A DNA stretch of 64,000 bases from NCBI GenBank assembly GCA_963715895.1, contig OY970284.1, positions 4,771,892-4,835,891 of the forward strand. The letters are read 5' to 3'. This DNA comes from Thermoanaerobaculia bacterium. Its GTDB lineage: Bacteria > Acidobacteriota > Thermoanaerobaculia > Gp7-AA8. The notes below the pieces were generated by a model that did not search any database, was not told where the DNA came from, and saw nothing but the letters and a program-made list of their open reading frames with translations. The position numbers and the translations under genes were made by a program. Position 1 is the stretch's first letter. Each line of letters begins with the position of its first letter. Shown piece by piece: positions 11,851 through 57,436 of this stretch.

Positions 11851-11998
11851 AGGTTGCTGGGTTGCTAAGTTGCTGGGTTGCTTGGTCTCGCAGTCTCGCG
11901 GTTTCGCGGTCTCGGGGGTGTTTTGGCCGAATGTCACCCCGCGCGACTTCCAAACCACGAGACCTCGCAACCCAGCAACCCTGCAACGCAGCAACCCA
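11851..11998. repeat. Dispersed GGTTGC/GCAACC inverted-repeat element, copy 1
   Basis: Left arm AGGTTGCTGGGTTGCTAAGTTGCTGGGTTGCTTGGTCTCG and right arm CGAGACCTCGCAACCCAGCAACCCTGCAACGCAGCAACCCAG are reverse complements; arms are built from tandem GTTGCT(G/A)G octamers; about 65-bp GC-rich centre. Confidence 0.65.
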
Positions 11999-12005
11999 GA
12001 AACCG

Positions 12006-25123: not shown

Positions 25124-25198
25124 GGGTTGCTGAGTTGCTTGGTTGCTTGGTTCGGCGGCGGTACTCAGCAACCTTGCAACCGAGCAACCCCGCAACCC
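25124..25198. repeat. Dispersed GGTTGC/GCAACC inverted-repeat element, copy 3
   Basis: GGGTTGCTGAGTTGCTTGGTTGCTTGGTTCG ... CTCAGCAACCTTGCAACCGAGCAACCCCGCAACCC; again fills a convergent intergenic gap (stops at 25122 and 25200). Confidence 0.65.
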
Positions 25199-34398: not shown

Positions 34399-34630
34399 TA
34401 CCAGAAGGCCGTTAACAGCCTTTCAGAGGCAGTTAACAGCCTTCCAGAGGCAGTTAATAGCCTTTCAGAGGCAGTTAACAGCCTTTCAGAGGCAGTTAAC
34501 AGCCTTCCAGAGGCAGTTAATAGCCTTTCAGAGGCAGTTAATAGCCTTTCAGAGGCAGTTAACAGCCTTCCAGAGGCAGTTAACAGCCTTCCAGAGGCAG
34601 TTAACAGCCTTCCAGAGGCAGTTAACGGTA
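34399..34630. repeat. 21-bp tandem repeat (minisatellite), about 11 copies
   Basis: Consensus GCAGTTAACAGCCTT(C/T)CAGAG with AACAGC/AATAGC and TTCCAG/TTTCAG variants; between purH stop and next gene; reads as (LTAFQRQ)n in one frame. Confidence 0.85.
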
Positions 34631-35625: not shown

Positions 35626-35689
35626 GCGGAGACGCGGAGGCGCGGAGAGGAAATGCGTAATCCCTCTCTCCGCGCCTCCGCGTCTCCGC
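35626..35689. repeat. Long near-perfect hairpin (25-bp stem) 8 nt after gene stop
   Basis: GCGGAGACGCGGAGGCGCGGAGAGG / loop AAATGCGTAATC / CCTCT(CT)CCGCGCCTCCGCGTCTCCGC; no downstream T-tract. Confidence 0.6.
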
Positions 35690-35730
35690 GTGAAACAATG
35701 GTGTACTCTTTGTAGAAACAAGGAGAAGCC

Positions 35731-35973
35731 GTGAAGGCACGCATCCAGAAGTGGGGTAACAGCCTGGCTCTTCGCATCCCGAAGCCATTCGCGGAGGAAG
35801 CGAGTCTGCGTGAGGACTCTGCTGTCGATGTGACGGTTCTAAGCGGAAAGCTTGTCGTCGTCGCGATCGAGGAGCCGCAGCTAACACTGGAGGACCTCGT
35901 CGCGAAGATAACACCGAGCAACCGGCACGCCGAGGTCGAGACGGGGAAGGCCGTTGGCAACGAAGTCTGGTAG
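35731..35973 (+). CDS. MazE/AbrB-SpoVT-family antitoxin
   Basis: GTG start with AAGGAGAA RBS; MKARIQKWGNSLALRIPKPFAEE... swapped-hairpin motif typical of MazE/PemI. Confidence 0.75.
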   Translation: MKARIQKWGNSLALRIPKPFAEEASLREDSAVDVTVLSGKLVVVAIEEPQLTLEDLVAKITPSNRHAEVETGKAVGNEVW

Positions 35974-36316
35974 TGGCAACTACGTTCCCGATCGCGGGGA
36001 CCTCGTCGCGCTCACGTTTGATCCTCAGGCGGGCCATGAGCAGGCTGGCCGGCGTCCGGCGGTGGTCCTTTCGCCGGCGATCTACAACGCCAGGTCCGGT
36101 CTGGCGGTGTTCGCTCCTGTCACCAGCCAAGTCAAGGGCTATCCGTTCGAGGTGCTGATTCCGCCGGGCCTCGCGGTTGGCGGTGTGGTGCTCGCGGATC
36201 AGTTGAAGAGCTTGGATTGGCGAGCGCGCAACGTGCACTACATTGCGTCGTTGCCACCCGAGGTGCTTTCTGCGGTCCTGCAGAAGACGGGGCTGCTCCT
36301 GTCAATCCGGAGTTGA
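35954..36316 (+). CDS. MazF/PemK-family endoribonuclease toxin
   Basis: YVPDRGDLVALTFDPQAGHEQAGRRPAVVLSPAIYN... canonical MazF N-terminus; overlaps antitoxin by 20 nt. Confidence 0.8.
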   Translation: MATKSGSGNYVPDRGDLVALTFDPQAGHEQAGRRPAVVLSPAIYNARSGLAVFAPVTSQVKGYPFEVLIPPGLAVGGVVLADQLKSLDWRARNVHYIASLPPEVLSAVLQKTGLLLSIRS

Positions 36317-36460: not shown

Positions 36461-38839
36461 ATGACCTCCTTCGACCTGATCATCGTCGGTTCCGGGCCGG
36501 CGGGGCTTGCGGCGGCGTCCCACGCGCAGAGCAATGGGCTCTCCTACGCGCTGCTGGAGCGGACCGACCATCTGGCGGACACCATCGACGCCTACCAGGC
36601 CCGCAAGTACGTGATGGCCGAGCCGATGCTGATTCCGGCTCGGGGGGAGGTGCCGTTCCAGGCGGGGTCGCGCGAATCGATCCTGGCGGCGTGGGGTGGG
36701 CACGTCAAAGAGAAGAAGCTCAACGTCCTCTTCAACGCCGAGGTCAAATCCATCAAGAAAGATGCTGGGCGGTTTCAGGTCGCCACCGCGAAGGGCGACA
36801 AGTTCGACGCCGCCAACGTCATCCTCGGCATGGGGACGCAGGGAAATCCGCGCAAACTCGGCGTACCGGGCGAAGACCTTCCCCACGTCCGCTACCGGCT
36901 CGTCGATCCGGCGGAGCATCGCGACCAGGACCTCCTCGTGGTCGGTGCCGGCGACTCCGCGCTCGAAATCGCTATCGCCCTGGCTGCTGAAAACCGCGTC
37001 GGACTGATCGTCCGAGGGACGGAGATCACCCGCGCCAACGACGTCCTGATCAAGGAGGTGCTCAGCCGGCAGGCCACGGGACAGATGACCGTCTACTTCA
37101 GCGCCAGCGTGAAGCAGGTCTATCCCGGCTATGCCGACCTCACCGTGCGCGGTGACGTCACGCGCGTGGCGGCGGAGCTGATCTTCCTCAAGCTCGGGGC
37201 CGACGCGCCGCGCAAATTCTTCGAGTCGATCGGCATCACCTACAGCGGCAGCGGCAAAGACTCGCGTCCCATCCTCAGCCAGGTCCACGAGTCGAGCGTG
37301 CCCGGGCTCTTCCTCATCGGCGCCGCCAGCGGGCGCGATCTCATCAAGCTGGGGATGAATCAGGGCTACGAGGTGGTCGAGCATCTGATGGGACGCGAGG
37401 TCGAGCCGGCCGACGAGGCGGTGCTGAAAGAGCGCCTGCCGTTCTGGGAAGGGACGGTGCGCGAGCGCATCGCCTTCCTGCGCACGCGCGTGCCCCTGCT
37501 GGCCGCGGCGGACGAGCAGCAGCTCCGCGAGACCTTCCTCTCCGCGCGCGTCCGCGAGTATGCGGACGGCGAGATCATCATCCGGCAGAACGACTACACG
37601 AACGACTTCCTCATCATCGCCGCCGGCCGCGTCGAGCTGTGGAAGAAGCCGGAGAAGACAAACACCGAGATCAAGATCGTCGAGCTGACGGCCGGCAACT
37701 TCTTCGGAGAGATGAGCCTCATCTCCGGACGCCGCCGCACCGCCACGGCCCGCGCGGTCGGAGCGACCCGCTTGATCGAGATCCCCCGCAAGGCAATCCT
37801 CAAGCTCCTCGGCGCAGCGCCGAGGGCCAAGGCACTCGTCGATCAGGCCTTCCTGCTGCGCGCCTTCGGCGGCTACCTCTTCCCCGGCATCCCCGAGTCG
37901 CAGCTCGGCGAGCTGGTGGAGCTGGCGGTGGTCAACAGCCTGGCCAAGGATGCGGTGGTCTTCCAGGAGGACACTCCGGCGGATGCCTTCTATCTCATCC
38001 GCAACGGCATGGTGAAGATCTCCAAGAAGTCGGGCGAGAAAGAGGTGGTGCTGTCGTACCTCGTGGCCGGCAACTTCTTCGGCGAGGCGGCCCTTTTCTC
38101 CGACACCGACCGGACGGCCACGGTGACGACGATCTTCCCGTCCGATCTGATCAAGCTCTCCAAGCGCGACTTCAACAACTTCCTGGCCGCCCATCCCGAG
38201 CTGCGCGAGGCGCCGCTGCGCAAGCTCGAGGAGCGCCGCATCGCCTCGCTCATCGCCGACGCCACCCCCGGCTCGGGCAACATCCTCAACGATCTGATCC
38301 GCGAGGAAGTGGTGATGGGGACGCAGACGCTCATCATCGACGAGCACAAATGCATCCGCTGCGGGAACTGCATCGCCGGCTGCGAAGGGGTTCACCGGGA
38401 CGGACAGGCGCGCCTCTCTCTAACCGGGATCAAGTTCTACAACCTGCTGGCGCCGAATTCCTGCTGGCAGTGCGAGAACCCGATGTGCATGCTGGACTGC
38501 CCGCCCGACGCCATCGTGCGCGACCCGCGCGGCGAGGTGTACATCAAGAGCAATTGCATCGGCTGCGGCAACTGCGAGCGCAATTGTCCTTATGGCAACA
38601 TTTTCATGATCCATAAGGAGCCCAAGAAGACGATTTTCTCCTGGGTGGCCTCGCTGTTCGGCAAAGGCCATGAGAACGAGATCGAGCAGACCGTGGCGGT
38701 GAAGTGCGACCTCTGCCGCGAGATCTCCGGCGGGCCGGCGTGCGTGCGGAGTTGTCCAACGGGAGCGGCCATCCGGTTGACGCCGGAGGAGTATCGGTCG
38801 ACGTTGGAGGAGTTGGTGATTACGCGCGGGGAGAGGTAG
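36461..38839 (+). CDS. Multidomain redox protein: FAD/NAD(P)-binding oxidoreductase + 2x cyclic-nucleotide-binding + 4Fe-4S dicluster ferredoxin domains
   Basis: N-terminal dinucleotide-binding GxGxxG (IIVGSGPAGLAAA) and second NAD(P) site (LLVVGAGDSALEIA). Two CAP-family cNMP-binding domains (GEIIIRQND...NFFGEMSLISGRRRTATARA and KDAVVFQED...NFFGEAALFSDTDRTATV). C-terminal Cys clusters (CIRCGNCIAGCEG; CWQCENPMCMLDCPP; CIGCGNCERNCPYG; CDLCRE...CVRSCP). Confidence 0.85.
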   Translation: MTSFDLIIVGSGPAGLAAASHAQSNGLSYALLERTDHLADTIDAYQARKYVMAEPMLIPARGEVPFQAGSRESILAAWGGHVKEKKLNVLFNAEVKSIKKDAGRFQVATAKGDKFDAANVILGMGTQGNPRKLGVPGEDLPHVRYRLVDPAEHRDQDLLVVGAGDSALEIAIALAAENRVGLIVRGTEITRANDVLIKEVLSRQATGQMTVYFSASVKQVYPGYADLTVRGDVTRVAAELIFLKLGADAPRKFFESIGITYSGSGKDSRPILSQVHESSVPGLFLIGAASGRDLIKLGMNQGYEVVEHLMGREVEPADEAVLKERLPFWEGTVRERIAFLRTRVPLLAAADEQQLRETFLSARVREYADGEIIIRQNDYTNDFLIIAAGRVELWKKPEKTNTEIKIVELTAGNFFGEMSLISGRRRTATARAVGATRLIEIPRKAILKLLGAAPRAKALVDQAFLLRAFGGYLFPGIPESQLGELVELAVVNSLAKDAVVFQEDTPADAFYLIRNGMVKISKKSGEKEVVLSYLVAGNFFGEAALFSDTDRTATVTTIFPSDLIKLSKRDFNNFLAAHPELREAPLRKLEERRIASLIADATPGSGNILNDLIREEVVMGTQTLIIDEHKCIRCGNCIAGCEGVHRDGQARLSLTGIKFYNLLAPNSCWQCENPMCMLDCPPDAIVRDPRGEVYIKSNCIGCGNCERNCPYGNIFMIHKEPKKTIFSWVASLFGKGHENEIEQTVAVKCDLCREISGGPACVRSCPTGAAIRLTPEEYRSTLEELVITRGER

Positions 38840-38845
38840 GGATGC

Positions 38846-38943
38846 AATGTTGAATGTTGAATGTTCAATGTTGAATGTTGAATGGACGGGAGACGGTCGC
38901 CTCCATTCAACATTGAACATTCAACATTCAACATTCAACATTC
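38846..38943. repeat. AT-rich heptamer-repeat palindrome (about 33-bp stem)
   Basis: Left arm (GAATGTT)x5-like CAATGTTGAATGTTGAATGTTCAATGTTGAATGTTGAATGG, 16-nt spacer, right arm its reverse complement; in the gap between the multidomain redox gene and the next gene. Confidence 0.75.
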
Positions 38944-38962
38944 GCCTTTCTCAGAGGCGTAC

Positions 38963-39796
38963 ATGCCAATAGCACGAAGCGGCGTCCTCTGGCGCCGGAT
39001 CTTCTTTCTTCTGCTCCTCGCCTTCACCGCGACCTTCATCTGGTACAAGAACCACGAATATCCGCACGGCGGCTCGCGATGGGGGTTGTTTTACGGGATC
39101 GTCGGCTTTTTCCTCTGCTATCTCCTGGCGTTCTTTGGAATCCGCAAGCGCTGGTACCGCTCGACGTTCGGCACCCTCGAACAATGGATGCAATCACACA
39201 TTTACCTCGGCATCCTGGTGCTGGTCATCCTCATTTATCACACGGGCGGACGATTTAACGACAAGATCGCCGTTGCCACGTTGATTCTGGTGGCCATTGT
39301 GGTATCGAGCGGGGTGTTGGGCGCGATTCTCTATGTGACCGTGCCGCGATTGTTAACCGAGGTTGAATCGAACCTGACGGTGGACGAGATATCGGAGCAG
39401 CTCAATCAACTCGCCAAACAGATGGCCCGTATTGCGTCGGGACGGTCGGCGCCATTTCAACGCATTTACAGCCAATTGATCCGCGAAGGCGAGCCGGGAT
39501 GGCTGGCCGGCTGGCGTCTGCTCTTCGCGCGGATGCGACGCGGTCCCGCGCCTATGGCTGGAGAGTGGACCAACCTCCTCAGCCTGGTGCAGAAGGACGA
39601 ACAGGAAGAGCTTCGTCAGCTGCTGGTCGTATCGCGGCAGCGAAAAGAGCTGCTGATCCGACTCATTTACCAGCAGCGCTACAAGAACGTCCTGGAGTTC
39701 TGGCTCTACATTCACATCCCATTCACGATTCTGCTGTTGCTGTTCGCGATCATCCACGTCGTGGCGGTGTTTTACTACGGGAGGGTCGCGTGGTGA
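38963..39796 (+). CDS. Polytopic membrane protein with two H-x13-H helices (putative di-haem b-type cytochrome)
   Basis: ATG at 38963; 5-6 TM helices, two of which carry His pairs spaced 13 residues apart (HIYLGILVLVILIYH; HIPFTILLLLFAIIH), as in bis-haem ferric-reductase/cytochrome-b-type domains. Family not recognised. Confidence 0.5.
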   Translation: MPIARSGVLWRRIFFLLLLAFTATFIWYKNHEYPHGGSRWGLFYGIVGFFLCYLLAFFGIRKRWYRSTFGTLEQWMQSHIYLGILVLVILIYHTGGRFNDKIAVATLILVAIVVSSGVLGAILYVTVPRLLTEVESNLTVDEISEQLNQLAKQMARIASGRSAPFQRIYSQLIREGEPGWLAGWRLLFARMRRGPAPMAGEWTNLLSLVQKDEQEELRQLLVVSRQRKELLIRLIYQQRYKNVLEFWLYIHIPFTILLLLFAIIHVVAVFYYGRVAW

Positions 39797-39928: not shown

Positions 39929-40112
39929 TCGAGAGCCTTCTCCCCCGCGGTTTTTTGCGGGGGAGAAGGTGCCGACAGGCGGATGAGGGGGCGCTTGGCA
40001 GGATGAGTCGCTATTTCCAGAGGAGTAACAAGGCATGCTGCTCAGCGCCCCCCTCATCCGCCTTCGGCACCTTCTCCCCCCGCAAAAAACCGCGGGGGGA
40101 GAAGGCTCTCGA
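39929..40112. repeat. Large nested inverted repeat (about 66-bp arms, about 50-bp spacer) upstream of the FHA-cytochrome gene
   Basis: Left arm TCGAGAGCCTTCTCCCCCGCGGTTTTTTGCGGGGGAGAAGGTGCCGACAGGCGGATGAGGGGGCGC; right arm its near-perfect reverse complement. Each arm also contains an internal 13-bp-stem hairpin (CCTTCTCCCCCGC ... GCGGGGGAGAAGG). Confidence 0.75.
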
Positions 40113-40199: not shown

Positions 40200-42431
40200 A
40201 TGAGTTTCGTCATCCAGCGCGCTTCGGGGCGCGGGCTGGCGCTGACGCAGGTGCGGCGCGATCTGCTCCGCATCGGGCGGGGGACGAATGCCGAGCTGCG
40301 CTCGGAGAATCCTGCCGTGGCCCTCGAGCATGCCGTCATCGAAGGCGACGCCAACGGCTTCACCGTCACCGACAAAGGGAGCATCACCGGCACGTACGTC
40401 AATCGCCGGCCGGTGGAGACGGCGCGGCTGGCCAGGGGCGACGTCATCGAGATCGGCGACCTGCGCATCGAGGTACAGGTTCTCGAGCCGGGCAAGCCGC
40501 TCTTCGTCCGCGTCAGCACGACGTCATCCGTGGCGGGGGTATTCGCCGGCGATGACGAGGAGATCGTCCAGGGCGCGGGAGCCCGCGGCGGCGCGGTCAA
40601 GGCGCGGAAGATCGACTACGCCGACGCCTTTCGTCTCAAGCGCGCCTGGCTGACCAAGCTCTCGCTCATCGCCATCCTTCTGATCGTCGCGTTCCTTGTT
40701 GTGGCCGAGGTCACCAAACCGGAGAAACAGAACGCGTTCATGCCGGGAGGGATCTCGTCGGCGCACGCGCGGGCGAAAGATCCCAGAACCGGCGAGTTGA
40801 TCGGCAACAACTGCCGCGCATGTCACAACCCGTGGCGCGGCGTTTCCGACACGAGCTGCACCGAATGTCACGGCAGACTGCCGCATGCGGAGAACCAGAT
40901 CGGCGCTCCGGCATGCGCCGACTGCCACTCCGAGCATCGCGGCTTCGCCAAACTGGCCGCGGCCGCGGACGCCACCTGCATCTCCTGCCACGGCGACATC
41001 GCCGCTCATGTCAAGGATCCGGCCGCCCTGGCGACGAAACCGAAAGAGATCCTCCACATCCTCTCCTTCGGCGGCCAACATCCCGACTTCACGCCGCGGA
41101 GCGATCCCGACACCCTTCTCTTCAACCACGCCCTCCACCTCAAGGCGGGTGGCGTGTTCAACGGAGAAGGACGCCGCGAAGAACTTCAGTGCACGCAATG
41201 CCACAAGCTCGTCGAGACGAAGGGGAAAGTCGATCCCGCTCCGATCAGCTTCAAGAGCCACTGCCAGCGCTGCCACAAACTGACGTTCGATCCGCGCTTC
41301 CCTAACGTCGAAGTGCCGCATGGAGGCGATCCCGCCGACGTCTACGGCTTCGTCCTGGCCACCTACGCCGGCAACCGCGACATCATCGGCAAGAGTCCGG
41401 AAGAGGTCCGGCGCATTCTGACGCTGCGGCCGCCGTCGACTCCCGACCAGGGAGCGGTGCTCAACGCCGAGCAGGTCGTCAAGGTCAAATGCAGCAAGTG
41501 CCACATCCTCCAGCGCTCCGGCACCCGTCTGGCCGCGAAGACGCCCGAGATCCCGGCGCGCTGGTTCCTGAAGGCGAAATTCACGCACACGCCGCACCGC
41601 ACCCTTTCGTGCGAGTCGTGTCACGAAAATGTCCGTCAGAGCACCAATACGTCAGACGTGCTGATGCCTGTGCGCAAAGATTGCACCGGATGCCACGGCG
41701 GGCAGTCGGCCAAAACATCCAGTAGCTGCGCGACCTGTCATGAGTATCATGAGCATTCGAAGGTCTTGTTGACGAAATTGGGGGCTTCCTCCGGGAAAGG
41801 AACGCCTCTTGCCCCGAAGGAACATGGAGGCGGATCCCGGATGATCGAGACGGTTCTTCTGTGGGCCATCGTCCTGTTACTGCTGGTGGTGCTCGTGCCG
41901 GCAGGGTTGGCGCTGGTCCAGCGTATCCGGGCCGGCGAGCTCGATCGCGCCGCGGGCGTGCGCGCCGCGGCCGCGCAGCAGGCGCCGACAGCGAAGATTC
42001 CGCCGCTGCAGGGTTCCGAGACGCCGTCGGCTCCGCCGCCCGCCGCGCCGGCGAAGGCGCCGGACATCACGAAGATGGCTCCCGTCCCCACCGCCCCGGC
42101 GGAAGGATCGACGGTGATGGTGCAGTGGTATGGCCTCCTGCAGTGCACCGGCGGCGCGCTGGAAGGACAGCGCTTCGTCATCGAAGAAGGCGGCCTCTAC
42201 ATCGGCCGCGATCCGGCCATGTCGCAGGTGGCCATCTCGGACAAACGCATCTCCAAACGGCACGTGCGGATCATTCCGCGTGATGGTAAGGTAATGGCCA
42301 TCGATCAGAACTCGACGAACGGTACGTTCCTCGGCAAGGCCGGCGGCGAGCGGATCACCGAGGTACAGCTCAAACGGGGAGACGTTCTCGTCCTGGCCGA
42401 CAACGCGGCCACGTTTGTGTACCAGATATAG
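40200..42431 (+). CDS. FHA - TM - decahaem c-type cytochrome - TM - FHA protein
   Basis: 743 aa. N-terminal FHA (LLRIGRGTNAELRS...GSITGTYVN...GDVIEIGDLRI), TM1 (LSLIAILLIVAFLVVAEV), ten CxxCH motifs (CRACH, CTECH, CADCH, CISCH, CTQCH, CQRCH, CSKCH, CESCH, CTGCH, CATCH), TM2 (VLLWAIVLLLLVVLVPAGLALV), Pro/Ala linker, C-terminal FHA (LYIGRDPAMSQVAISDKRISKRHVRI...STNGTFL...GDVLVLAD). Confidence 0.85.
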   Translation: MSFVIQRASGRGLALTQVRRDLLRIGRGTNAELRSENPAVALEHAVIEGDANGFTVTDKGSITGTYVNRRPVETARLARGDVIEIGDLRIEVQVLEPGKPLFVRVSTTSSVAGVFAGDDEEIVQGAGARGGAVKARKIDYADAFRLKRAWLTKLSLIAILLIVAFLVVAEVTKPEKQNAFMPGGISSAHARAKDPRTGELIGNNCRACHNPWRGVSDTSCTECHGRLPHAENQIGAPACADCHSEHRGFAKLAAAADATCISCHGDIAAHVKDPAALATKPKEILHILSFGGQHPDFTPRSDPDTLLFNHALHLKAGGVFNGEGRREELQCTQCHKLVETKGKVDPAPISFKSHCQRCHKLTFDPRFPNVEVPHGGDPADVYGFVLATYAGNRDIIGKSPEEVRRILTLRPPSTPDQGAVLNAEQVVKVKCSKCHILQRSGTRLAAKTPEIPARWFLKAKFTHTPHRTLSCESCHENVRQSTNTSDVLMPVRKDCTGCHGGQSAKTSSSCATCHEYHEHSKVLLTKLGASSGKGTPLAPKEHGGGSRMIETVLLWAIVLLLLVVLVPAGLALVQRIRAGELDRAAGVRAAAAQQAPTAKIPPLQGSETPSAPPPAAPAKAPDITKMAPVPTAPAEGSTVMVQWYGLLQCTGGALEGQRFVIEEGGLYIGRDPAMSQVAISDKRISKRHVRIIPRDGKVMAIDQNSTNGTFLGKAGGERITEVQLKRGDVLVLADNAATFVYQI

Positions 42432-42454: not shown

Positions 42455-44278
42455 ATGCGCTCCGGTGTCACGTCGATCCTCATGATTCTCGTCGCCACGG
42501 CCTGCCTGGCGCAGGGCCGCACGATCGGACGGCGCGACAGGGCGTTGGCGACCACTCCCGATCCCCCTTCGTGCGCCATCCCTCTGAACGCGGCCCTTCC
42601 CGACGTCTGCACCGACGGCGCGATCGGCCTCGGGACGCCGGAGCCATTCAGCGCCATTTCGAAAGCCGAGGCGATTGAGATCGTCAAGGCGGCGGCGACG
42701 GCGCTTGCCGGCGACACCGCCACCATCGCCATCGTCGACCGTACCGGCCGTCCGGTGGCGTTGTTCCGGCAAGCCAACGCCAACCCTGCCAACGATGACG
42801 TCGCCCTCGGCGTGGCCCGCACCGCCGCCTTCTTCAGCAACAGCCAGGCGCCGCTTTCCTCGCGCACGGTGCGCACCATTTCTCAAGTGCACTTCCCACC
42901 AGGCGTGGTCAACACGCCGGTCGGCGCTCTGTACGGGATCGAACAGTCGAACCGCGGATGCGATGTAAACGTGCTGTGGAACACGAATCAGTGCGTTCCG
43001 CGAGCGAAGTCGATCGGACAGTTCGCCGCCTTCACCGGCGCGCCGAAGCCCTGCCCGATCACTGATCGCTCCGGCTGCGGCCCCGGTCTCATCACCGGGA
43101 AAATCCTGCCGGACGATGCGCCGTATCCGCAGGAAGTCGATACCCGTCCCGTCAACGCCGGCGGCATCCCGCTCTACCGCGTTCTCGACACCAGTGCCGT
43201 CAAGCAGGGGATCGCCCGCACCGGAAAGCTGCTCGGCGCGATCGGCGTCACCGGCATCCCCGGCGATCCACAGCTCGCCGAATTCGCCGCCGTTACCGGC
43301 GCCTTTGGTCCGCTCAACGCCGGCGTGGCGCCGATCATCCCGCTGCCGAACTATCCGCTGCCGCAGCCGCAGAACGTCTTCATCGACGGAATCCGCCTGC
43401 CGTTCATCGGGCCGGATCAACAGCTGAAGTTCAATGCAGACGGACTGCCGATCGGTCTCCAGCAACTGCCCGGCACCTCGCCAGGTTCAGCCGCGGGATT
43501 TACCGCGGGCACCTTCGTCTACGGACCCTTTAACGGCGGCTGCCCGCCGAACGGCTATCTCGTCGGTCCCAACGCCAGCGTGCTGCCGGGCGGGCTGACG
43601 GCATCGGCGGTCGACGCCATCGTGCAGCGCGCCGTCGCGGCGGCCAGGCGCACCCGCGCTCAGGTGCGCCTCCCACTCAACAGCTACACCCGCATGATCA
43701 TCTCCGTAGCCGACACCGACGGAACGATCCTGGCGCACTACCGGATGCCCGACTCCCTCTTCGACGCCGTCGACGTCGTCCTGGCGAAAGCGCGCAACGT
43801 CGCCTACGTCAACGGCAGCGATCCGAACGTCCGCAACGATCTTCCCGGCATTCCCGCCGGCTATTGGGTAACCGGGCGCACGATCGGTTTCGGTGCGCAG
43901 CCGCTCTATCCGCCGGGCATCGATTCGCAGGCATTCGATGTCGGTCCCGGGCCGTGGTACTCCACTCTCTTTCTGCCAAACATCGCCAAGCCGTGCAGCC
44001 AGGGATCGCAGGCGCCGAACGCCAACCAGAACGGCGTCACATTCTTCGGCGGATCCACGCCGCTCGTCGACAACGGCAAACTCGTCGGTGGTCTCGGCGT
44101 CAGCGGCGACGGTATCGAGCAGGACGACTATGTCACCTACCTCGGCGCGGGCCCTCTCCTTCCGCCGACCGACAAATGGGCCGATCAGCTCAATGTCAAC
44201 GGCGCCCGTCTGCCGATGTTCAAGTTCCCCCGGAGCCCCGAAGGAGTCACGGAGTGCGGGGGGAAGCCGTGTTCGTAG
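42455..44278 (+). CDS. Secreted tandem GlcG/HbpS-like (DUF336) haem-binding protein
   Basis: Signal peptide; two DUF336-like modules (SKAEAIEIVKAAATALAGDTATIAIVDRTGRPVALFRQ... and SAVDAIVQRAVAAARRTRAQ...MIISVADTDGTILAHY...GGSTPLVDNGKLVGGLGVSGDGIEQDD). Confidence 0.7.
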   Translation: MRSGVTSILMILVATACLAQGRTIGRRDRALATTPDPPSCAIPLNAALPDVCTDGAIGLGTPEPFSAISKAEAIEIVKAAATALAGDTATIAIVDRTGRPVALFRQANANPANDDVALGVARTAAFFSNSQAPLSSRTVRTISQVHFPPGVVNTPVGALYGIEQSNRGCDVNVLWNTNQCVPRAKSIGQFAAFTGAPKPCPITDRSGCGPGLITGKILPDDAPYPQEVDTRPVNAGGIPLYRVLDTSAVKQGIARTGKLLGAIGVTGIPGDPQLAEFAAVTGAFGPLNAGVAPIIPLPNYPLPQPQNVFIDGIRLPFIGPDQQLKFNADGLPIGLQQLPGTSPGSAAGFTAGTFVYGPFNGGCPPNGYLVGPNASVLPGGLTASAVDAIVQRAVAAARRTRAQVRLPLNSYTRMIISVADTDGTILAHYRMPDSLFDAVDVVLAKARNVAYVNGSDPNVRNDLPGIPAGYWVTGRTIGFGAQPLYPPGIDSQAFDVGPGPWYSTLFLPNIAKPCSQGSQAPNANQNGVTFFGGSTPLVDNGKLVGGLGVSGDGIEQDDYVTYLGAGPLLPPTDKWADQLNVNGARLPMFKFPRSPEGVTECGGKPCS

Positions 44279-44290
44279 GGCGTAACGCAA

Positions 44291-44466
44291 CGCTACGTAG
44301 GTCGGACTCACGTAGGTCGGACTCACGTAGGTCGGACTCACGTAGGTCGGACTCTCTAGTCCGACCGGCGCTTGGGAGATCGGTAATTGATAACCCGCCT
44401 GTAGTTCAGAGCCGCGCAAGAACCGGTCGGACTAGAGAGTCCGACCTACGTGAGTCCGACCTACGT
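44291..44466. repeat. Composite tandem + inverted repeat element (MITE-like)
   Basis: Four tandem copies of ACGTAGGTCGGACTC (44295-44354), palindrome GGTCGGACTCTCTAGTCCGACC, about 57-bp spacer, second palindrome GGTCGGACTAGAGAGTCCGACC and two inverted copies GAGTCCGACCTACGT ending at the OMP start codon. Confidence 0.75.
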
Positions 44467-46454
44467 TTGGCTTCGCTCGTCTTTCTCATCCTCCTGTTCG
44501 CAACCTCGGCATTCGCGCAACCCGCAACCGCGCCCATCACCATCAACGACGACCAGCCCGTTTACGCCGAGGGTGTGCCGTTCCTGCTCACGGGAACATC
44601 GCTGCCCGGCGCTATCGTCACCATCGCCATCGAGAAATCGGGCAACGGCCAGACCACAGCCGATGCTTCGGGATATTGGACATTGATCTGGACACCGCCG
44701 GTAAAAACCGGCACGTGGACCATCACCGCCAGCTCGGGGGGCGTGACGGCGACGCAGCTTCTGCGCGTACAGATTCAGGGCAACGTACAGCGGCAGCCGA
44801 TCGTCGAGCCGGTCGTGCGCTACGGGACGCCGGAGATTCCGCATCCCGAGGCGTATCAGGAGATGACGGATCGGTGGCGCATCACGCCGCCGCCGTACGA
44901 GCTGACCGAGAAATCGAAAGGCCGCCCCATCGGCGACAAAGGCGCCTCGATCGATCCGTACAACCAGAACCTGATCAAAGGCGACCTGCCGATCTTCGGG
45001 AAGGACTGGTTCCTCGACTTCACCGGCATCAGCGACACCCTCGCCGAGTCGCGCACGCTGCCGACGCCGTCGGGCGTCAGCGCCGTCAAGCCGACCTCGA
45101 TCACCGTCTTCGGCAAAGACAACCAGAACCTCTTCAACGAGAACCTGATCGCCTCCTTCGACCTCTTCCAGGGCGACACCGCCTTCAAGCCCATCACGCA
45201 GCGCTTCAAGATCACGCTGATCGAAAACATCAACTACGTACACCTGCGCGAGAACGCTCTCGTCAAGCCTGACGTCCGCCGCGGAACGTCGCGCACCGAT
45301 GGGTATCTCTCGCTGCAGGAGATCTTCTACGAGCGAAAGATCCGCGATGTCTCGCCGAACTACGACTTCATGTCATTCCGCGTCGGATCGCAGCCCTTCA
45401 ACAGCGACTTCCGCGGGTTCATCTTCAACGACACGAACCTTGGCGCCCGCCTTTTCGGCAACTTCGCGTCCAATCGCTATCAATACAACGTCGCCGTGTT
45501 CGACCGGCTGGAAAAAGACACCAACTCCGGCCTCAACACAATGGAGCTCCGCGATCAGCAGGTCGGCATCGCCAATATCTACCTGCAGGACTTCCTCGTC
45601 CGCGGCTACACCCAGGAGTTCAGCGTCCACTATCTACGCGACGGCGCCACCTTTCACTACGACCGCAACGGCATCCTGGTGCGCCCTGCGCCGGTTGGGG
45701 TCTTCACGCCGCACGAGATCCGCGCCACGTACATCGGCGAGGCGGGCCTGGGACACATCGGCCGCTTCAACGTCGACCACGCCATCTACTACGTCTTCGG
45801 CACCGACGAGTTGAATCCGATCGCCGGCCCCGATCCGAATCTAAAGAACGGGAACGCCGTGAAGATCGGAGCCGGCAGCGCGGCCCTCGAGGTCTCCTAC
45901 GACCACGATTGGTATCGGCCGCGGCTGGCCCTTTTCTACGCCTCGGGCGACCGCAATCCGCGCGACCGCAACGCCCGCGGCTTCGACTCCATCTTCGACA
46001 GTCCTAATTTCGCCGGCGGCGGTTTCTCTTCTTCAACCGCCTCGGCATCCGCCTTCCGACGACCGGCGTCGCGCTCGTCGAGCGCGGCTCGCTCCTGACC
46101 AGCCTGCGCAGCTCGAAGGATGAAGGGCAGCCGAACTACGTCAATCCCGGCGTGCAGATCGCCAGCACGGGAATCGATGTCAACGTCACGCCGCGGCTGA
46201 CGGCAATCTTCACCGGCAACTACATCCGCTTCGACGCCGTCGAGTCGGTCGAGGCCATCCTCTTCCAGGGCAACATCCACAAGACGCTCGGCACCGATCT
46301 CTCCGCCGGCCTTCGCTACCGGCCGCTCCTCAACCAGAACATCGTCATCGTCGGCGGCACCGCCGTCCTCCTCCCCGGCCGAGGATTCAAAGACATCTAT
46401 GAAAAAGACCGGCCGCTCTACCACGTCTTCACGAACGTAATCCTGACCTTCTGA
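44467..46454 (+). pseudogene. Outer-membrane beta-barrel (porin-like) protein, interrupted by a -1 frameshift at about 46021-46025
   Basis: TTG start; signal peptide (ASLVFLILLFATSAFAQP); alternating-hydrophobic beta-strand composition; C-terminus ...HVFTNVILTF ends in Phe (OMP sorting signature). The reading frame switches at GGCGGCGGTTTCTC (3-T run): frame 1 ends at 46098, frame 0 continues as FLFFNRLGIRLP... to 46454. This may be a sequencing error rather than a true pseudogene. Confidence 0.6.
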
Positions 46455-49400
46455 TGAAACGGATAACGATCGCTCTCGCCGCAGTGCTCATCGTCACGCT
46501 GGCCGTGATCAGAATCCGCGCGCAGACATCCCCCGACCTCCCGCCGCTGATGCGCCAGACACAGGCCGAGGCCGATGCGAAGAGTGCCGGATGCCTCTCG
46601 TGTCATAACGGGATCGAACCGATGCACGCCTCGGCGGCGGTGAAGCTGGCCTGCACCGACTGCCACGGCGGCGACGGTTCGGCGCGGACGAAAGAGGCCG
46701 CGCATGTCAAGCCGCTCCATCCCGAGATCTGGAAGACCTCGGCCAATCCGCAGCGCAGCTACACCGCCCTTCTGAAAGAGACGCCGGAGTTCGTGAAGTT
46801 CGTCAATCCAGGCGACCTTCGCGTCTCGCAGGAGACCTGCGGCGGCTGCCATCAGCGCCAGGTCAACGCTGTACCGCGCAGCACCATGACGACGTCCGCC
46901 GTCTTCTGGGCCGCCGTCAGCTACGCCAACGGTCTCGTCAGCCGCAAGCAGGGACTCCTCGGCGAGAGCTACAACCGCGCCGGCAACGCCACGTCCATCA
47001 AACCGGCAACGCCGCCGACACCCGATCAGATCGCCAAAGGCGCGCTGCCGATCCTCGTCCCACTGCCGCGCTGGGAGGTCTTTCAGCCGGCCGAGTACTT
47101 CCGCGCTTTCGAGCGAGGCGGCATCTCGGGAAGCAGCTCCTTCCCGGATATCGGCAATCCCAGCCCCGAGGGGGAAGCGGGTAAGCCTGACATCCGCCTC
47201 GGCAACCGCGGACGCGGTACCGGCCTGCGCATCTCGCCCGCGCTCATCAATCTCAACAAGACGCGGCTCAACGATCCCCATCTCTCGTTCCTCGGCACGA
47301 ACGATCATCCAGGCGACTACCGCTCCTCCGGATGCACGGGATGCCACGTCGTCTACGCCAACGATCGCGATCCATTGCATTCCTCTAGCTACGCTCAGTA
47401 CGGCAACACCGGCCTCTCCATCACCGGCGACAAATCGATCCCGAAGAATGAGCAGGGACACCCGCTACGCCACCAGTTCACGCGCGCCGTACCAACGAGC
47501 CAGTGCATGACGTGTCACATGCATCAGCCGAACTCCTTCGTGAACACGTATCTCGGCTACACGATGTGGGACTACGAGTCAGACGCCGAGCTGCTCTGGC
47601 CGAAGAAACAGAAGTATCCGACCGAGGCCGAGAAGCGCGCCTCGCTCGACGCAAATCCAGAAGGCGCTGCGCCGAGGGGATTGTGGAGCGATGAGAAGTT
47701 CCTCGAAAACGTCTCCGGCCTCAATTCGCAGGCGAAGAACACCCAGTTCGCCGACTACCACGGGCACGGCTGGAACTTCATGGCCGTCTACAAACGCGAC
47801 CACAAAGGCAACCTGCTCGACGCCGACGGCAGAATCGTTTCGTTCGATGATCCCGCCAAGTTCAGCAAAGCCGTTCATCTGCAGGACATCCACCTCGAGA
47901 AAGGGATGCACTGCGCCGACTGCCACTTCTCGCAGGACGAGCACGGCAACGGCCAGATCTACGCCGAGTACGGCAACAACATCGAGATCGAATGCCAGGA
48001 CTGCCACGGCAACGTCGACGCCTACACCAACCTGCGCACCTCCGGCCCCGCCGCGCCGCCGGGAGGGACCGATCTTCGGCTCGGAACCACACCGTTCGGT
48101 CAACGCCGCTTCATCTGGGTCAACGGCAGGCTGTATCAGAGGTCGATGCTGAACCCCGGCATGCAGTGGGAAGTCATCCAGGTCAAAGACAGCATCACGC
48201 CCGGTAACGCGCATTACAACGAGCGCTCCGCGTATGCGAAGACGATCCAGCGCGACGGTACGACCTGGGGAACGTCATCCAGCGCGAATTTCGCCCACGC
48301 CGACGCCAGGATGACTTGCTATGCGTGCCACACCTCGTGGATGACCTCATGCTCCGGCTGCCATCTGCCGCAGGAGCAGAACGCCAAGACCGAGGTCCAT
48401 CACTACGAGGGGGGCGAGACGAGAAACTACGCCTCGTACAACCCCCAGGTCATCCGCACCGACGTCTTCATGCTTGGTGTCAACGGCACCACCAAAGGGC
48501 ATCGCCTAGCGCCCGTTCGGTCATCGTCCGCGCTCGTGATCAGCTCGACGAACGCATTGCGCGACCGCATCTACATCCAGCAGCCACCCATCTCCTCGCC
48601 CGGATATTCGAGCCAGGCCTTCAACGCCCACGTCCCGCACACCGTCCGCACCCGCGAAACGCAGGGGTGCGGAAGCTGCCACATCACCAAAGAGAACGAC
48701 AACAACGCCTGGCTCGCCCAGCTCCTGCTGCAAGGAACCAACTTCGTCAACTTCGTCGGCCGCTACGCCTACGTCGCGGAAGGAAAGGGCGGGTTCGAGG
48801 GCGTCTGCGTAACCGAGTGGGACGAGCCGCAGGCGGTCATCGGATCGTCGCTGCACAAGATCGTCTATCCCGACTACTACGCGAAGCACCAGGCCAACAA
48901 GCTGGAGCTGCAGACCGCGCACGAACATCACGGCGACTCGCGCTCACTGCAGATGCGCGGTGAGTTCATCTACAGCGCGAACGGCGAGGAAGGCTTCAGC
49001 GTCTACGACATCGCCAACATCGACAACAAAGACTTCTCCGAGCGCATCGTCTCCCAGCCGGTCTCCCCGCTAGGCCAGCGTACCTTCGTGAAGACGAAGT
49101 TCGCCTCGGCCGTGGCGCTGCCGACGACGATGCCGGTGGCCCCCACGCGCCAGACGCAGTTCATCAAGGAAAACGAAGAGCAGACGATTCACCCGCTGTA
49201 CAAATACGTCTACGTCGCCGACCGCGAAGAGGGGCTGATCCTCATCGACGTGACGACGCTGTCAGACGCCAATCCGTCGAACAACTTCCTCACGCGCGCC
49301 GTGACCTTCAATCCCGGCGGCGCGCTCAACGGTGCCCGATCGATCTACGTCGCCGGACGCTGGGTCTTCATCGGCGCAGCGGGTGGCTTGGTCATCGTCG

Positions 49401-50065
49401 ACGTCGACAAACCGCTCGAGCCGAGGATTGTCGCCACGATTCCTGAATTGAAGGATGCCACCGGCATCGGCGTGCAGTTCCGCTATGCCTTTGTCACCAC
49501 GCCGGAAGGATTGGCCAGCGTCGACATCACCGACCCGTCGCATCCGCGCGTGGCCGCGCGCCTGGCCGTTCCCGACGCCAGAAGCGTCTATGTCGCTCGC
49601 ACCTACGCCTACATCGGCGGAGGCGCCCGCGGGATGGTCATCGTCGACGTCGAGCACCCGGAGAAGCCGGCAATCCTCCCGTGGAGCGACGAGCTCCCGC
49701 ATGACGCCAACGACGTGAAAGTGGCCTCGACCAACGCATCGACCTTCGCGTACGTCGCCGACGGCAAGTACGGTCTCAAGGTCTACCAGTTCCTCTCCCC
49801 CGAATGGACGCCCGGATACGCCGGCTTCAGCCCGCGTCCCGAACCGCGCCTCGTCGCCACCCGCCGCACGCACGGCCCGGCGCTGGCGGTCTCGAAGGGC
49901 CTCGACCGCGACCGCGCCGTCGACGAAGGCGGCAATCAGGTTTCGATCTTCAACCGCATCGGCGCGCGCCCGATGACGCTCCCCGAGATGCAGCGGCTCT
50001 ACCTCCGCGACGGATCGCTCTACACCGTCAGCGAGACGCCGACTACGAAGCCGGTCACGAGGTGA
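46454..50065 (+). CDS. Secreted multihaem (about 10 CxxCH) c-type cytochrome fused to C-terminal LVIVD-repeat beta-propeller
   Basis: ATG overlaps OMP stop (ATGA); signal peptide. CxxCH motifs: CLSCH, CTDCH, CGGCH, CTGCH, CMTCH, CADCH, CQDCH, CYACH, CSGCH, CGSCH. C-terminal about 350 aa contain LVIVD-type repeats (LILIDVT, LVIVDVD, MVIVDVE, YAYIGGG). Confidence 0.85.
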   Translation: MKRITIALAAVLIVTLAVIRIRAQTSPDLPPLMRQTQAEADAKSAGCLSCHNGIEPMHASAAVKLACTDCHGGDGSARTKEAAHVKPLHPEIWKTSANPQRSYTALLKETPEFVKFVNPGDLRVSQETCGGCHQRQVNAVPRSTMTTSAVFWAAVSYANGLVSRKQGLLGESYNRAGNATSIKPATPPTPDQIAKGALPILVPLPRWEVFQPAEYFRAFERGGISGSSSFPDIGNPSPEGEAGKPDIRLGNRGRGTGLRISPALINLNKTRLNDPHLSFLGTNDHPGDYRSSGCTGCHVVYANDRDPLHSSSYAQYGNTGLSITGDKSIPKNEQGHPLRHQFTRAVPTSQCMTCHMHQPNSFVNTYLGYTMWDYESDAELLWPKKQKYPTEAEKRASLDANPEGAAPRGLWSDEKFLENVSGLNSQAKNTQFADYHGHGWNFMAVYKRDHKGNLLDADGRIVSFDDPAKFSKAVHLQDIHLEKGMHCADCHFSQDEHGNGQIYAEYGNNIEIECQDCHGNVDAYTNLRTSGPAAPPGGTDLRLGTTPFGQRRFIWVNGRLYQRSMLNPGMQWEVIQVKDSITPGNAHYNERSAYAKTIQRDGTTWGTSSSANFAHADARMTCYACHTSWMTSCSGCHLPQEQNAKTEVHHYEGGETRNYASYNPQVIRTDVFMLGVNGTTKGHRLAPVRSSSALVISSTNALRDRIYIQQPPISSPGYSSQAFNAHVPHTVRTRETQGCGSCHITKENDNNAWLAQLLLQGTNFVNFVGRYAYVAEGKGGFEGVCVTEWDEPQAVIGSSLHKIVYPDYYAKHQANKLELQTAHEHHGDSRSLQMRGEFIYSANGEEGFSVYDIANIDNKDFSERIVSQPVSPLGQRTFVKTKFASAVALPTTMPVAPTRQTQFIKENEEQTIHPLYKYVYVADREEGLILIDVTTLSDANPSNNFLTRAVTFNPGGALNGARSIYVAGRWVFIGAAGGLVIVDVDKPLEPRIVATIPELKDATGIGVQFRYAFVTTPEGLASVDITDPSHPRVAARLAVPDARSVYVARTYAYIGGGARGMVIVDVEHPEKPAILPWSDELPHDANDVKVASTNASTFAYVADGKYGLKVYQFLSPEWTPGYAGFSPRPEPRLVATRRTHGPALAVSKGLDRDRAVDEGGNQVSIFNRIGARPMTLPEMQRLYLRDGSLYTVSETPTTKPVTR

Positions 50066-53615: not shown

Positions 53616-53888
53616 CCGGGCGCCCCTCGGCGCTCGACCGTCCCGATTCTCCAACCGCACGACTGCCAAACTGAACGACTCGCATTGTTGTCATTTTTGG
53701 TGGTGTGGGTTTCCGCTAATCCCAACACTCCTTAACTAATAAGACACCGATCGGCATTAGTTCCGTGACAACGGATGGGGCTGCTCGACGGCTCCTTCCG
53801 CTCTTCCATTGGCGTACCCCAGGCGAAGGGTCGCGTCGGCCTTTCGCTTCGTTTTCGTCTTTCTCTCAACCTTTTTGGAGGAGATGCC

Positions 53889-57327: not shown

Positions 57328-57436
57328 GATCTGAACGTCAGACGTCAGGCTCCTGAACCTGAACGTCACGGCCGCGAACCTGAACGTCAGGCTCCTGAGC
57401 CTGAACTTCACGTCAATGAACCTGAACGTCATGTCG
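57328..57436. promoter_or_regulatory. Array of about 5 direct repeats (CTGAACGTCA core, about 22-25-bp spacing) upstream of the M50 protease gene
   Basis: CTGAACGTCA at 57331, 57356, 57380, 57422 and the variant CTGAACTTCA at 57401, each embedded in (GAAC)CTGAACGTCAGGCTCCTGA-like units. Confidence 0.5.

Follow-up and report, generated by a model that had tools for sequence, protein, structure and literature searches.

We analysed a 64,000-nucleotide stretch of DNA (the window) from a Thermoanaerobaculia bacterium (phylum Acidobacteriota; contig OY970284.1) and found in it a plus-strand gene (38963..39796) for a putative di-haem b protein of 277 amino acids with five transmembrane (TM) helices, a candidate for the 'IMP' of PCC3/PCC4-type clusters. 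The gene is preceded by one for a predicted cytoplasmic protein with a flavin and iron-sulfur (Fe-S) clusters and followed by one for a decahaem cytochrome c with FHA domains, and the spacer on either side of it holds a large palindrome. These features suggest that the 277-residue protein carries electrons through the inner membrane between the products of the two neighbouring genes.

Histidine pairs and membrane topology

The protein has six histidines, at residues 31, 35, 79, 93, 251 and 265, of which the last four form two pairs with the same exact spacing, H79-x13-H93 (codons 39197-39199 and 39239-39241) and H251-x13-H265 (codons 39713-39715 and 39755-39757). Hydropathy places TM segments at about residues 8-26, 42-60, 80-98, 107-125 and 252-270. 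The AlphaFold2 (AF2) model, made from a 66-sequence alignment (mean predicted local distance difference test score, pLDDT, 91.5; predicted template-modelling score, pTM, 0.83), contains helices at 5-31, 39-62, 72-94, 101-134 and 211-276, together with short ones within 140-206. When hydropathy and model are combined, the five TM helices lie at about 10-28, 40-60, 75-94, 103-127 and 246-270. The histidine pairs fall within TM3 and TM5, which agrees with an earlier reading of this DNA made from its letters alone (the sequence-only reading), in which two TM helices with histidines 13 residues apart had been noticed.

The relatives returned by an exhaustive search of 1.84 billion cluster representatives number 2757 at E<=1e-3 and 734 at E<=1e-10, and almost every one has 260-300 amino acids. 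We assessed conservation in an alignment of 121 sequences, consisting of the query and 120 representatives at 23-53% identity (family mean identity 31%). H79 and H93 are kept in 121/121, H251 in 116/121 and H265 in 114/121; conservation of H31 and H35 was looked for in the same alignment and none was found. Together with W75 (116/121) and W247 (117/121), the histidines make up a W-x3-H-x13-H motif that is present twice in 108 of the 121 family representatives. In TM3 this motif reads W75-x3-H79-x13-H93 and includes G83, kept in 120/121 (39185..39241, plus strand), and in TM5 it reads W247-x3-H251-x13-H265 and includes P253, kept in 110/121 (39701..39757, plus strand). TM4 contributes S116-G117-x2-G120 (here S116-G117-V-L-G120; 39308..39322, plus strand), with serine or threonine at position 116 in 118 sequences and both glycines in all 121, a small-residue patch at the depth of the predicted cytoplasmic-side haem that is also found in the proteins described by He, Barco, Emerson and Roden (2017, Front Microbiol 8:1584; PMC5566968; hereafter He et al. 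2017). Also conserved are G41 (113/121) and G45 (119/121) in TM2, the basic residues R61 (118/121), K62 (116/121) and R63 (110/121) between TM2 and TM3, Y124 (112/121) and P128 (117/121). A histidine pattern conserved in this way exceeds chance.

Lysine and arginine (K+R) are unevenly distributed over the loops of the family. Their mean number is 2.6 in the N-terminus, 4.2 in the TM2-TM3 loop and 18.9 in an insert between TM4 and TM5, and it is low in the TM1-TM2 loop (0.7), the TM3-TM4 loop (0.5) and the C-terminus (0.6). According to the positive-inside rule, this distribution places both the N-terminus and the insert in the cytoplasm; TM3 and TM5 would therefore run parallel, both from the cytoplasm to the periplasm, with their histidines at matched depths. 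H79 and H251 sit 4-5 residues from the cytoplasmic boundary, and H93 and H265 another 14 residues outward. Fourteen residues of helix span about 21 Å and return to nearly the same face, as seen for the pair of bis-His haems in cytochrome b and in NOX-type domains. The virtually invariant glycine of TM2 is near the periplasmic end of that helix and the S-G-x-x-G of TM4 near the cytoplasmic end; from these positions, each predicted haem level would face a small-residue patch on a helix that supplies no ligand, as in cytochrome b.

The insert between TM4 and TM5, recognised by DSSP and by its K+R content, is a predicted cytoplasmic helical region of about 115 amino acids (residues 128-245; 39344..39697, plus strand). 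DSSP assigns helices in it at 140-158, 163-175, 182-188, 199-206 and from 211 onward in the AF2 model. It is found in all full-length homologues and is possibly a docking platform.

Besides Thermoanaerobaculia/Acidobacteriota, the phylum labels of named homologues are Nitrospinota, Nitrospirota, Bdellovibrionota and Chloroflexota. No proteobacterial label occurs among the homologues with an organism name, most matches having carried no name, and a tblastn search of plasmids with the family consensus gave no match.

All homologues begin with MPIARSG, which identifies the ATG at 38963 as the true start of the gene; a GAGG lies 8 nucleotides 5' of it. The list of open reading frames has the gene start further 5', at 38882, within the upstream palindrome. 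The longer frame traverses the heptamer repeats of that palindrome and gives the protein a spurious repeat-derived leader. Public calls of the close homologues P0002, P0007, P0021 and P0041 (297-303 amino acids) sometimes carry 20-27 extra amino acids at the N-terminus. We also noticed a small stem-loop just past the big hairpin, CGCCUUU-CUC-AGAGGCG (38943-38959), which pairs the likely Shine-Dalgarno sequence (AGAGG) of the gene.

A conserved gene order around the five-helix protein

The four genes of the module and the two that follow it, for a porin-like and a 1203-residue decahaem protein, are all on the plus strand. Directly upstream of the 277-residue protein gene is a gene for a protein of 792 amino acids (36461..38839), identified from Pfam matches and cysteine positions as a flavin adenine dinucleotide (FAD)/NAD(P)H flavoprotein with two cNMP-binding domains and a 4x[4Fe-4S] ferredoxin domain. 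Its Pfam matches are Pyr_redox_3 (7.7e-37), cNMP_binding (1.2e-40) and Fer4_11 (PF13247, 7.4e-8). A FAD Rossmann motif begins at residue 8, GAGDSA forms a second dinucleotide motif, and the two cNMP domains sit between the flavin module and the C-terminal, HydN-like ferredoxin domain. All 16 cysteines are in the ferredoxin domain, where they form four Cx2Cx2-4Cx3C-type groups, and no signal peptide was found in the protein. A role as a disulfide reductase of the thioredoxin-reductase/YpdA-like kind was considered for this flavoprotein and ruled out, as it has no cysteine outside the ferredoxin domain. From these features it is predicted to be a cytoplasmic NAD(P)H/FAD protein with a wire of four [4Fe-4S] clusters.

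Directly downstream, as the sequence-only reading had stated, is the FHA-decahaem gene (40200..42431). Domain and motif searches give its product of 743 amino acids the order FHA, TM helix, periplasmic decahaem c domain (10 CXXCH), TM helix, FHA, with one FHA domain at each cytoplasmic end of the cytochrome. The next gene (42455..44278) encodes a secreted protein with two HbpS-like domains (Pfam HbpS-like 1.5e-23) and a signal-peptide-like N-terminus, and synteny marks it as the conserved fourth gene of the module.

The order flavo-Fe-S gene, 277-residue protein gene, FHA-multihaem c gene, HbpS-like gene was found in 65/65 Thermoanaerobaculia/Acidobacteriota loci, which are those with enough flanking DNA, and it recurs in relatives whose five-helix proteins are 52%, 31% and 27% identical. 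In the 52%-identical relative (L005, 1392-6026), genes for an FHA-GAF-guanylate cyclase and a Ser/Thr kinase lie directly upstream of the module. A more distant branch at about 22-25% identity includes proteins labelled Chloroflexota/Anaerolineales. Here separate genes encode an 87-residue 2x[4Fe-4S] ferredoxin, a 434-residue Pyr_redox_2 flavoprotein and the five-TM homologue, whose gene has an overlapping start, and the multihaem cytochrome c has 545 amino acids and no FHA domain. Since the cNMP and FHA domains are absent from this Chloroflexota-type version, they appear to be add-ons and not part of the core. What is kept, down to about 22-30% identity, is a flavo-Fe-S gene on one side and a multihaem c gene on the other, together with the four histidines and the glycine patches of the five-TM protein itself. 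Because a cytoplasmic Fe-S wire and a periplasmic haem wire are always encoded beside it, there is a strong case for the five-TM protein as the redox link that crosses the membrane.

Further along the cluster lies a putative outer-membrane porin-like gene (44521..46454), located by tblastn of its orthologue from the 96%-identical relative L003 and with an apparent frameshift near 46029-46044. The intact orthologue of 694 amino acids (ending ...NVILTF) matches frame 1 up to 46029 and frame 3 from 46044; the frameshift is either an assembly error or the mark of a pseudogene. The following gene (46454..50065) is assigned to the cytochrome cluster by its sequence features and encodes a secreted decahaem protein of 1203 amino acids with LVIVD repeats. 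The cluster also has a C554-like cytochrome, and its multihaem genes include 4-5-haem genes besides the 10-haem ones. A few kb past it, at 53775-55301, we observed a DHOR-type di-haem oxidoreductase/peroxidase-like gene (PF06537, 1.5e-28) together with one for a TonB-C protein. Directly before the redox cluster are a MazF/PemK toxin gene (PF02452, 4.9e-25) and a small upstream open reading frame (35731-36316), a pair that is also present in L003.

Intergenic palindromes

The upstream palindrome (38846..38943) is a hairpin with arms of tandem heptamers, (AATGTTG)n and (CATTCAA)n, and it starts 7 nucleotides past the stop codon of the upstream gene. Its 46-nucleotide arms are 91% complementary, and the predicted RNA fold has an energy of -65 kcal/mol (z = -10.1). 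The downstream palindrome (39929..40112) is a composite, nested inverted repeat of REPIN/MITE-like appearance, hypervariable between close relatives. Each of its ends is a short GC-rich palindrome (CCTTCTCCCCCGC-loop-GCGGGGGAGAAGG), its centre is variable, and the 403-nucleotide spacer that holds it folds at -228.9 kcal/mol (z = -12.7). No further copy of the short GC-rich palindrome exists in the window. The upstream hairpin is reminiscent of STRR, the heptamer repeats of cyanobacteria, as the downstream palindrome is of REP/REPIN elements. A scan for promoters and terminators at the two palindromes detected no promoter and no canonical (U-tract) terminator. Rfam matched only microRNA-precursor hairpin models, below threshold, and these were set aside as generic hairpins.

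Inverted pairs of short tandem repeats follow many genes in the window, at 11852-12004, 25125-25198, 35626-35691, 38846-38943 and 44295-44466. In related loci (L001-L071, 975 kb) we counted 129 hairpins with arms of at least 20 nucleotides, 55 of them with periodic arms. Among these 55 the period is 7 in 36 cases, 8 in 11 and 14 in 4, at least 35 different repeat units are represented, and 53 start between -15 and +60 nucleotides from a stop codon. These counts are not independent, because many of the periodic hairpins sit at two homologous positions flanking the gene of the 277-residue protein.

The spacers beside this gene range from -4 (overlapping genes) to 840 nucleotides, and hairpins are absent where genes abut or overlap. 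The unit of the upstream hairpin varies by lineage (AATGTTG, GAGTCGG, ACGCAGA, AATGCAG, GGATTGA, AAATTGA and others). On the downstream side, even relatives of 95-96% identity differ, L016 having a 17-nucleotide spacer and L007 a different hairpin with 44-nucleotide arms; L003 (10880-11110) has the same composite element with another centre, and more distant relatives have unrelated nested palindromes of about 300 nucleotides in this spacer. We also observed composite nested palindromes of 180-300 nucleotides downstream of the gene in L009, L011, L012 and L020. Being fast-evolving, lineage-typical post-stop elements, the palindromes belong to the intergenic spacers and not to the gene between them: they are ordinary intergenic hairpins of the lineage, unrelated to the function of the protein. 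The post-stop heptamer hairpins might conceivably act as terminators or mRNA stabilisers. Two other repeats were seen in the window, a tandem array of 10.7 copies of 21 nucleotides just after a purH-like gene (34401-34626) and a 21/42-nucleotide tandem array between divergent genes (57342-57431).

Remote homology and comparison with known systems

When 66 diverse homologues were scanned at E<0.01, 28 matched PF01292 (prokaryotic cytochrome b561), seven DUF4405 and four Ferric_reduct. The best PF01292 match was at 3.8e-8, known by its E value alone and not by a bit score. The family consensus scores 21-22 bits against PF01292, under the gathering threshold of 30.1 bits; after deletion of the insert it covers positions 13-165 of the 179 in the profile with an E value of 1.6e-4. 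PF01794 (Ferric_reduct) did not match the query and gave the consensus 10 bits against a gathering threshold of 28 bits. No Pfam match to NarI/DsrM/HdrE-type families was obtained for the query or the 66 homologues; in the query the histidines are on TM3 and TM5 and both spacings are x13. The family is thus a distant relative of the di-haem cytochrome b families, as yet unclassified and in no current Pfam family.

Some other candidates were rejected. When the PDB was searched with the family profile, only coiled-coil noise caused by the helical insert came up, and the insert-deleted consensus returned nothing. Foldseek of the AF2 model against the PDB gave no match at E<=0.001, its top entries, the TorS sensor and ND1 of complex I, matching long helices only. 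The JGI labels 'hemolysin III/YqfA', 'PreT', 'cytochrome b561' and 'Ferric reductase' on homologues were taken as weak automatic annotations. PAQR/HlyIII proteins have seven TM helices, and this family was rejected because of that requirement.

The closest known system is the IMP of the PCC3/PCC4 clusters, a hypothetical protein of about 300 amino acids with five TM helices, S-G-x-x-G on TM4 and W-x3-H-x13-H on both TM3 and TM5, for which binding of two b-haems and electron passage through the inner membrane were proposed (He et al. 2017). Later literature has kept for it the name 'a conserved inner membrane protein'. The 277 amino acids, the five TM helices, W75/H79/H93, W247/H251/H265 and S116-G117-x2-G120 of our protein all match this description. 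The likeness extends to the cluster: in PCC4 subgroup II a PF13247 Fe-S gene is directly upstream and the cytochromes have 4, 5 and 10 haems (PMC5566968), and here a PF13247 match is upstream, a decahaem gene directly downstream, and more multihaem genes and a putative porin-like gene are in the vicinity. The differences are that He et al. (2017) described IMP in Proteobacteria and Planctomycetes, whereas ours is from Thermoanaerobaculia (Acidobacteriota), that in their paper (PMC5566968) there is no mention of FAD/NAD(P)H, of cNMP and FHA domains or of Acidobacteria, and that it models a link to the quinone pool.

A second likely counterpart comes from Ferrigenium straubiae, in which a cluster encodes an FHA-nonahaem cytochrome, a five-TM protein and a cytosolic [4Fe-4S] protein (bioRxiv 10.64898/2026.01.22.701106, section 6.3.2). 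In that preprint the five-TM protein, 'with no matches ... in the InterPro database', is regarded as a probable scaffold and probably non-redox, and the combination of FHA and multihaem domains is stated to be previously unreported. Compared by description, the Ferrigenium cluster looks like the same module, with a cytochrome of nine haems and one TM helix in place of the ten haems and two TM helices found here.

The protein also resembles the ferric reductase-type domain (FRD, PF01794) in its cytoplasmic N-terminus, its inside-to-outside histidine pairs with x13 spacing on TM3 and TM5, its basic TM2-TM3 loop, its proposed cytoplasmic NAD(P)H/FAD electron source and the proposed exit of electrons on the outside. 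In NADPH oxidases and ferric reductases, the FRD has its N-terminus inside, TM3/TM5 histidine pairs 13 (or 12) apart and six TM helices. In contrast, our protein has five TM helices, a Pfam score far under the threshold and the 115-residue helical insert between TM4 and TM5; its NAD(P)H/FAD module resides on a polypeptide of its own, which brings in four [4Fe-4S] clusters, and its predicted acceptor is a multihaem cytochrome c instead of O2 or Fe(III).

Cytochrome b561/FdnI/HyaC proteins (PF01292, Ni_hydr_CYTB) give the best remote match. TM5 matches the last FdnI helix in register, and the partner with a four-cluster ferredoxin-type domain parallels the pairing of FdnI with FdnH. However, the match is below the gathering score and the Fe-S partner of the 277-residue protein is predicted to be cytoplasmic. 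FdnI has four TM helices, three of which provide its ligands (1+1+2), against 2+2 in the 277-residue protein. The Tmc, Hmc and DsrMKJOP complexes of sulfate reducers follow the same logic of electron passage through the inner membrane, with a multihaem cytochrome c in the periplasm, a cytochrome b in the membrane and an Fe-S protein in the cytoplasm. Their b subunits are of the NarI/HdrE type, with histidines on TM2 and TM5 at other, unequal spacings, and their cytoplasmic subunits are HdrD-like, without flavoprotein, cNMP or FHA domains. No sequence relationship to Tmc, Hmc or DsrMKJOP was detected.

Proposed function and alternatives

We consider it likely that the 277-residue protein spans the membrane as the di-haem b subunit of a conserved module that has three parts and transfers electrons across the membrane. 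Binding of two b-haems seems quite probable, and for a direct path from NAD(P)H to the periplasm the chances are about even. Histidine conservation, topology, glycine patches, remote Pfam matches and deep synteny all point to the di-haem b membrane protein that the sequence-only reading had put forward; the histidines lie inside predicted TM helices, the pairs are at matching depths, and no match to a non-haem family was found. Its suggestion that electrons enter on the cytoplasmic side also gains credit, given that the upstream gene is predicted to encode a cytoplasmic FAD/NAD(P)H protein with two cNMP domains and four [4Fe-4S] clusters. Sequence features, their conservation, topology statistics and synteny were observed; from them we infer that haem is bound, which partners dock, which way electrons flow and that no quinone step intervenes.

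In the proposed mechanism, the protein would have its N-terminus inside and five TM helices, and TM3 and TM5 would each give one histidine to each of two stacked b-haems. H79 and H251 would ligate the cytoplasmic-side haem and H93 and H265 the periplasmic-side haem, with TM2 (G41, G45) and TM4 (S116-G117-x2-G120) offering small-residue surfaces at the two haem depths. Electrons would pass from NAD(P)H to FAD and to the four [4Fe-4S] clusters of the 792-residue partner, then through the inner and the outer haem b to the ten c-haems of the FHA-anchored periplasmic cytochrome, and last to the remaining cytochromes of the cluster and its porin-like protein. The module would thus be akin to an NADPH oxidase split into subunits, or to the transmembrane redox complexes of the Tmc/Hmc/Dsr type. 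We favour outward flow, since NAD(P)H donates electrons at low potential and their export goes along with the membrane potential. The presence of cNMP-binding and FHA domains suggests control by cyclic nucleotides and Ser/Thr phosphorylation, and the FHA-GAF-guanylate cyclase and Ser/Thr kinase genes of L005 point the same way.

Several results weigh against this interpretation. The 277-residue protein itself gave nothing significant against Pfam and NCBIfam (PF01292: E 0.52, 10.5 bits). The sequence-only reading had named profile families of this kind as a check, and matches to them come, below threshold, from some homologues (PF01292, DUF4405 and Ferric_reduct) and not from the query. No individually scanned member reached the gathering score of PF01292, the best having 26.5 bits, and neither a PDB sequence search nor Foldseek yielded a relative with a solved structure. 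In hhalign comparisons with single sequences, only TM5 aligned to E. coli FdnI (E 0.067, not significant), setting H251 and H265 on FdnI residues 155 and 169, both histidines, which are its haem ligands, and TM2-TM3 aligned weakly to E. coli MsrQ (E 0.11, not significant); the register of both alignments is plausible. The protein appears to belong to the IMP type of He et al. (2017), as judged by motifs and architecture, and for that type a quinone-reactive, inward role in Fe(II) oxidisers was proposed (PMC5566968).

Such a quinone-reactive cytochrome b is an alternative that we regard as unlikely for our protein. Its two b-haems would link the multihaem cytochrome to the quinone pool, and the cytoplasmic partner would neither give nor receive electrons directly. 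The protein would then be a quinol dehydrogenase of the CymA/CbcL kind or, in metal oxidisers, a quinone reductase (He et al. 2017). IMP is modelled in this way in that paper, and the PCC4 subgroup I and PCC3 clusters are described there without an adjacent Fe-S gene (PMC5566968). In our loci, however, genes for a cytoplasmic flavoprotein and Fe-S protein were directly upstream wherever flanking DNA sufficed, often overlapping or abutting, and a pure quinol:cytochrome c oxidoreductase has no need of such a partner. The nearest Pfam family, PF01292, does include the quinone-reactive anchors FdnI and HyaC, but no quinone-site residues are identifiable in the 277-residue protein. A quinone role and direct conduction are in any case compatible with each other and not mutually exclusive. 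It is quite improbable that the protein binds a single haem, or one haem and another cofactor in an MsrQ/STEAP-like manner, with the second histidine pair binding something else or nothing. The weak alignment of TM2-TM3 to MsrQ and the occurrence of single-haem members in the FRD superfamily speak for it, whereas the four histidines are about equally conserved and the full motif stands on both helices in 108 of the 121 sequences.

Still less probable is a non-redox scaffold that merely anchors or organises the FHA-multihaem cytochrome and the Fe-S protein, a role that the preprint on Ferrigenium straubiae suggests for its look-alike gene (bioRxiv 10.64898/2026.01.22.701106). The lack of an InterPro or Pfam assignment agrees with it, and docking could take place on the large helical insert in the cytoplasm. 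However, a scaffold leaves without reason why four membrane-embedded histidines at matched depth and the glycine patches are the most conserved residues, and the Fe-S wire of the cytoplasm would have no redox carrier in the membrane to connect it with the haems of the periplasm. The sequence-only reading had also taken the two palindromes as possible signs of tight structural regulation of the gene or of a mobile cassette. Both palindromes are real, as that reading had it, and very stable, and the downstream one is present or absent among close relatives. Nevertheless the gene order is unchanged with or without them in the 65 loci and in several phyla, the two elements are unrelated in sequence and differ in relatives, similar hairpins stand behind many other genes, and the upstream one keeps close to the preceding stop codon as its counterparts elsewhere do. 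We therefore give up the cassette and regulatory-unit proposal as extremely improbable, and retain the di-haem b subunit as the interpretation that we prefer.

Implications

Since He et al. (2017; PMC5566968) had already proposed such a carrier, the di-haem b idea is a sound rediscovery in a new phylum. Added here are the occurrence in Thermoanaerobaculia, a gene order with a flavo-Fe-S partner that is conserved to great depth, and the presence of cNMP and FHA domains; the central idea was published in 2017. This protein type, predicted in that year, is absent from Pfam and NCBIfam and, according to the 2026 preprint, from InterPro, and the family spans at least five phylum labels beyond Proteobacteria. 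For annotation, the family merits a profile of its own, and the flanking palindromes are no gene-specific signals.

These findings bear on the passage of electrons through the inner membrane in porin-cytochrome pathways apart from Mtr/CymA. The conserved histidines, the glycine patches, the gene position and the signalling domains provide a concrete model for it that can be tested in the laboratory. More tentatively, and with considerable doubt, we may picture the module as a quinone-independent, NOX-like electron exporter that runs from cytoplasmic NAD(P)H, by way of FAD, the four Fe-S clusters and both b-haems, straight to multihaem cytochromes in the periplasm and outside the cell, and is switched by cyclic nucleotides through the two cNMP domains and by phosphothreonine signalling through the FHA domains. 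If true, this exporter would reverse the inward direction assumed for PCC3/PCC4 in iron oxidisers, and would give several phyla a new, signal-gated way of feeding electrons into extracellular transfer.

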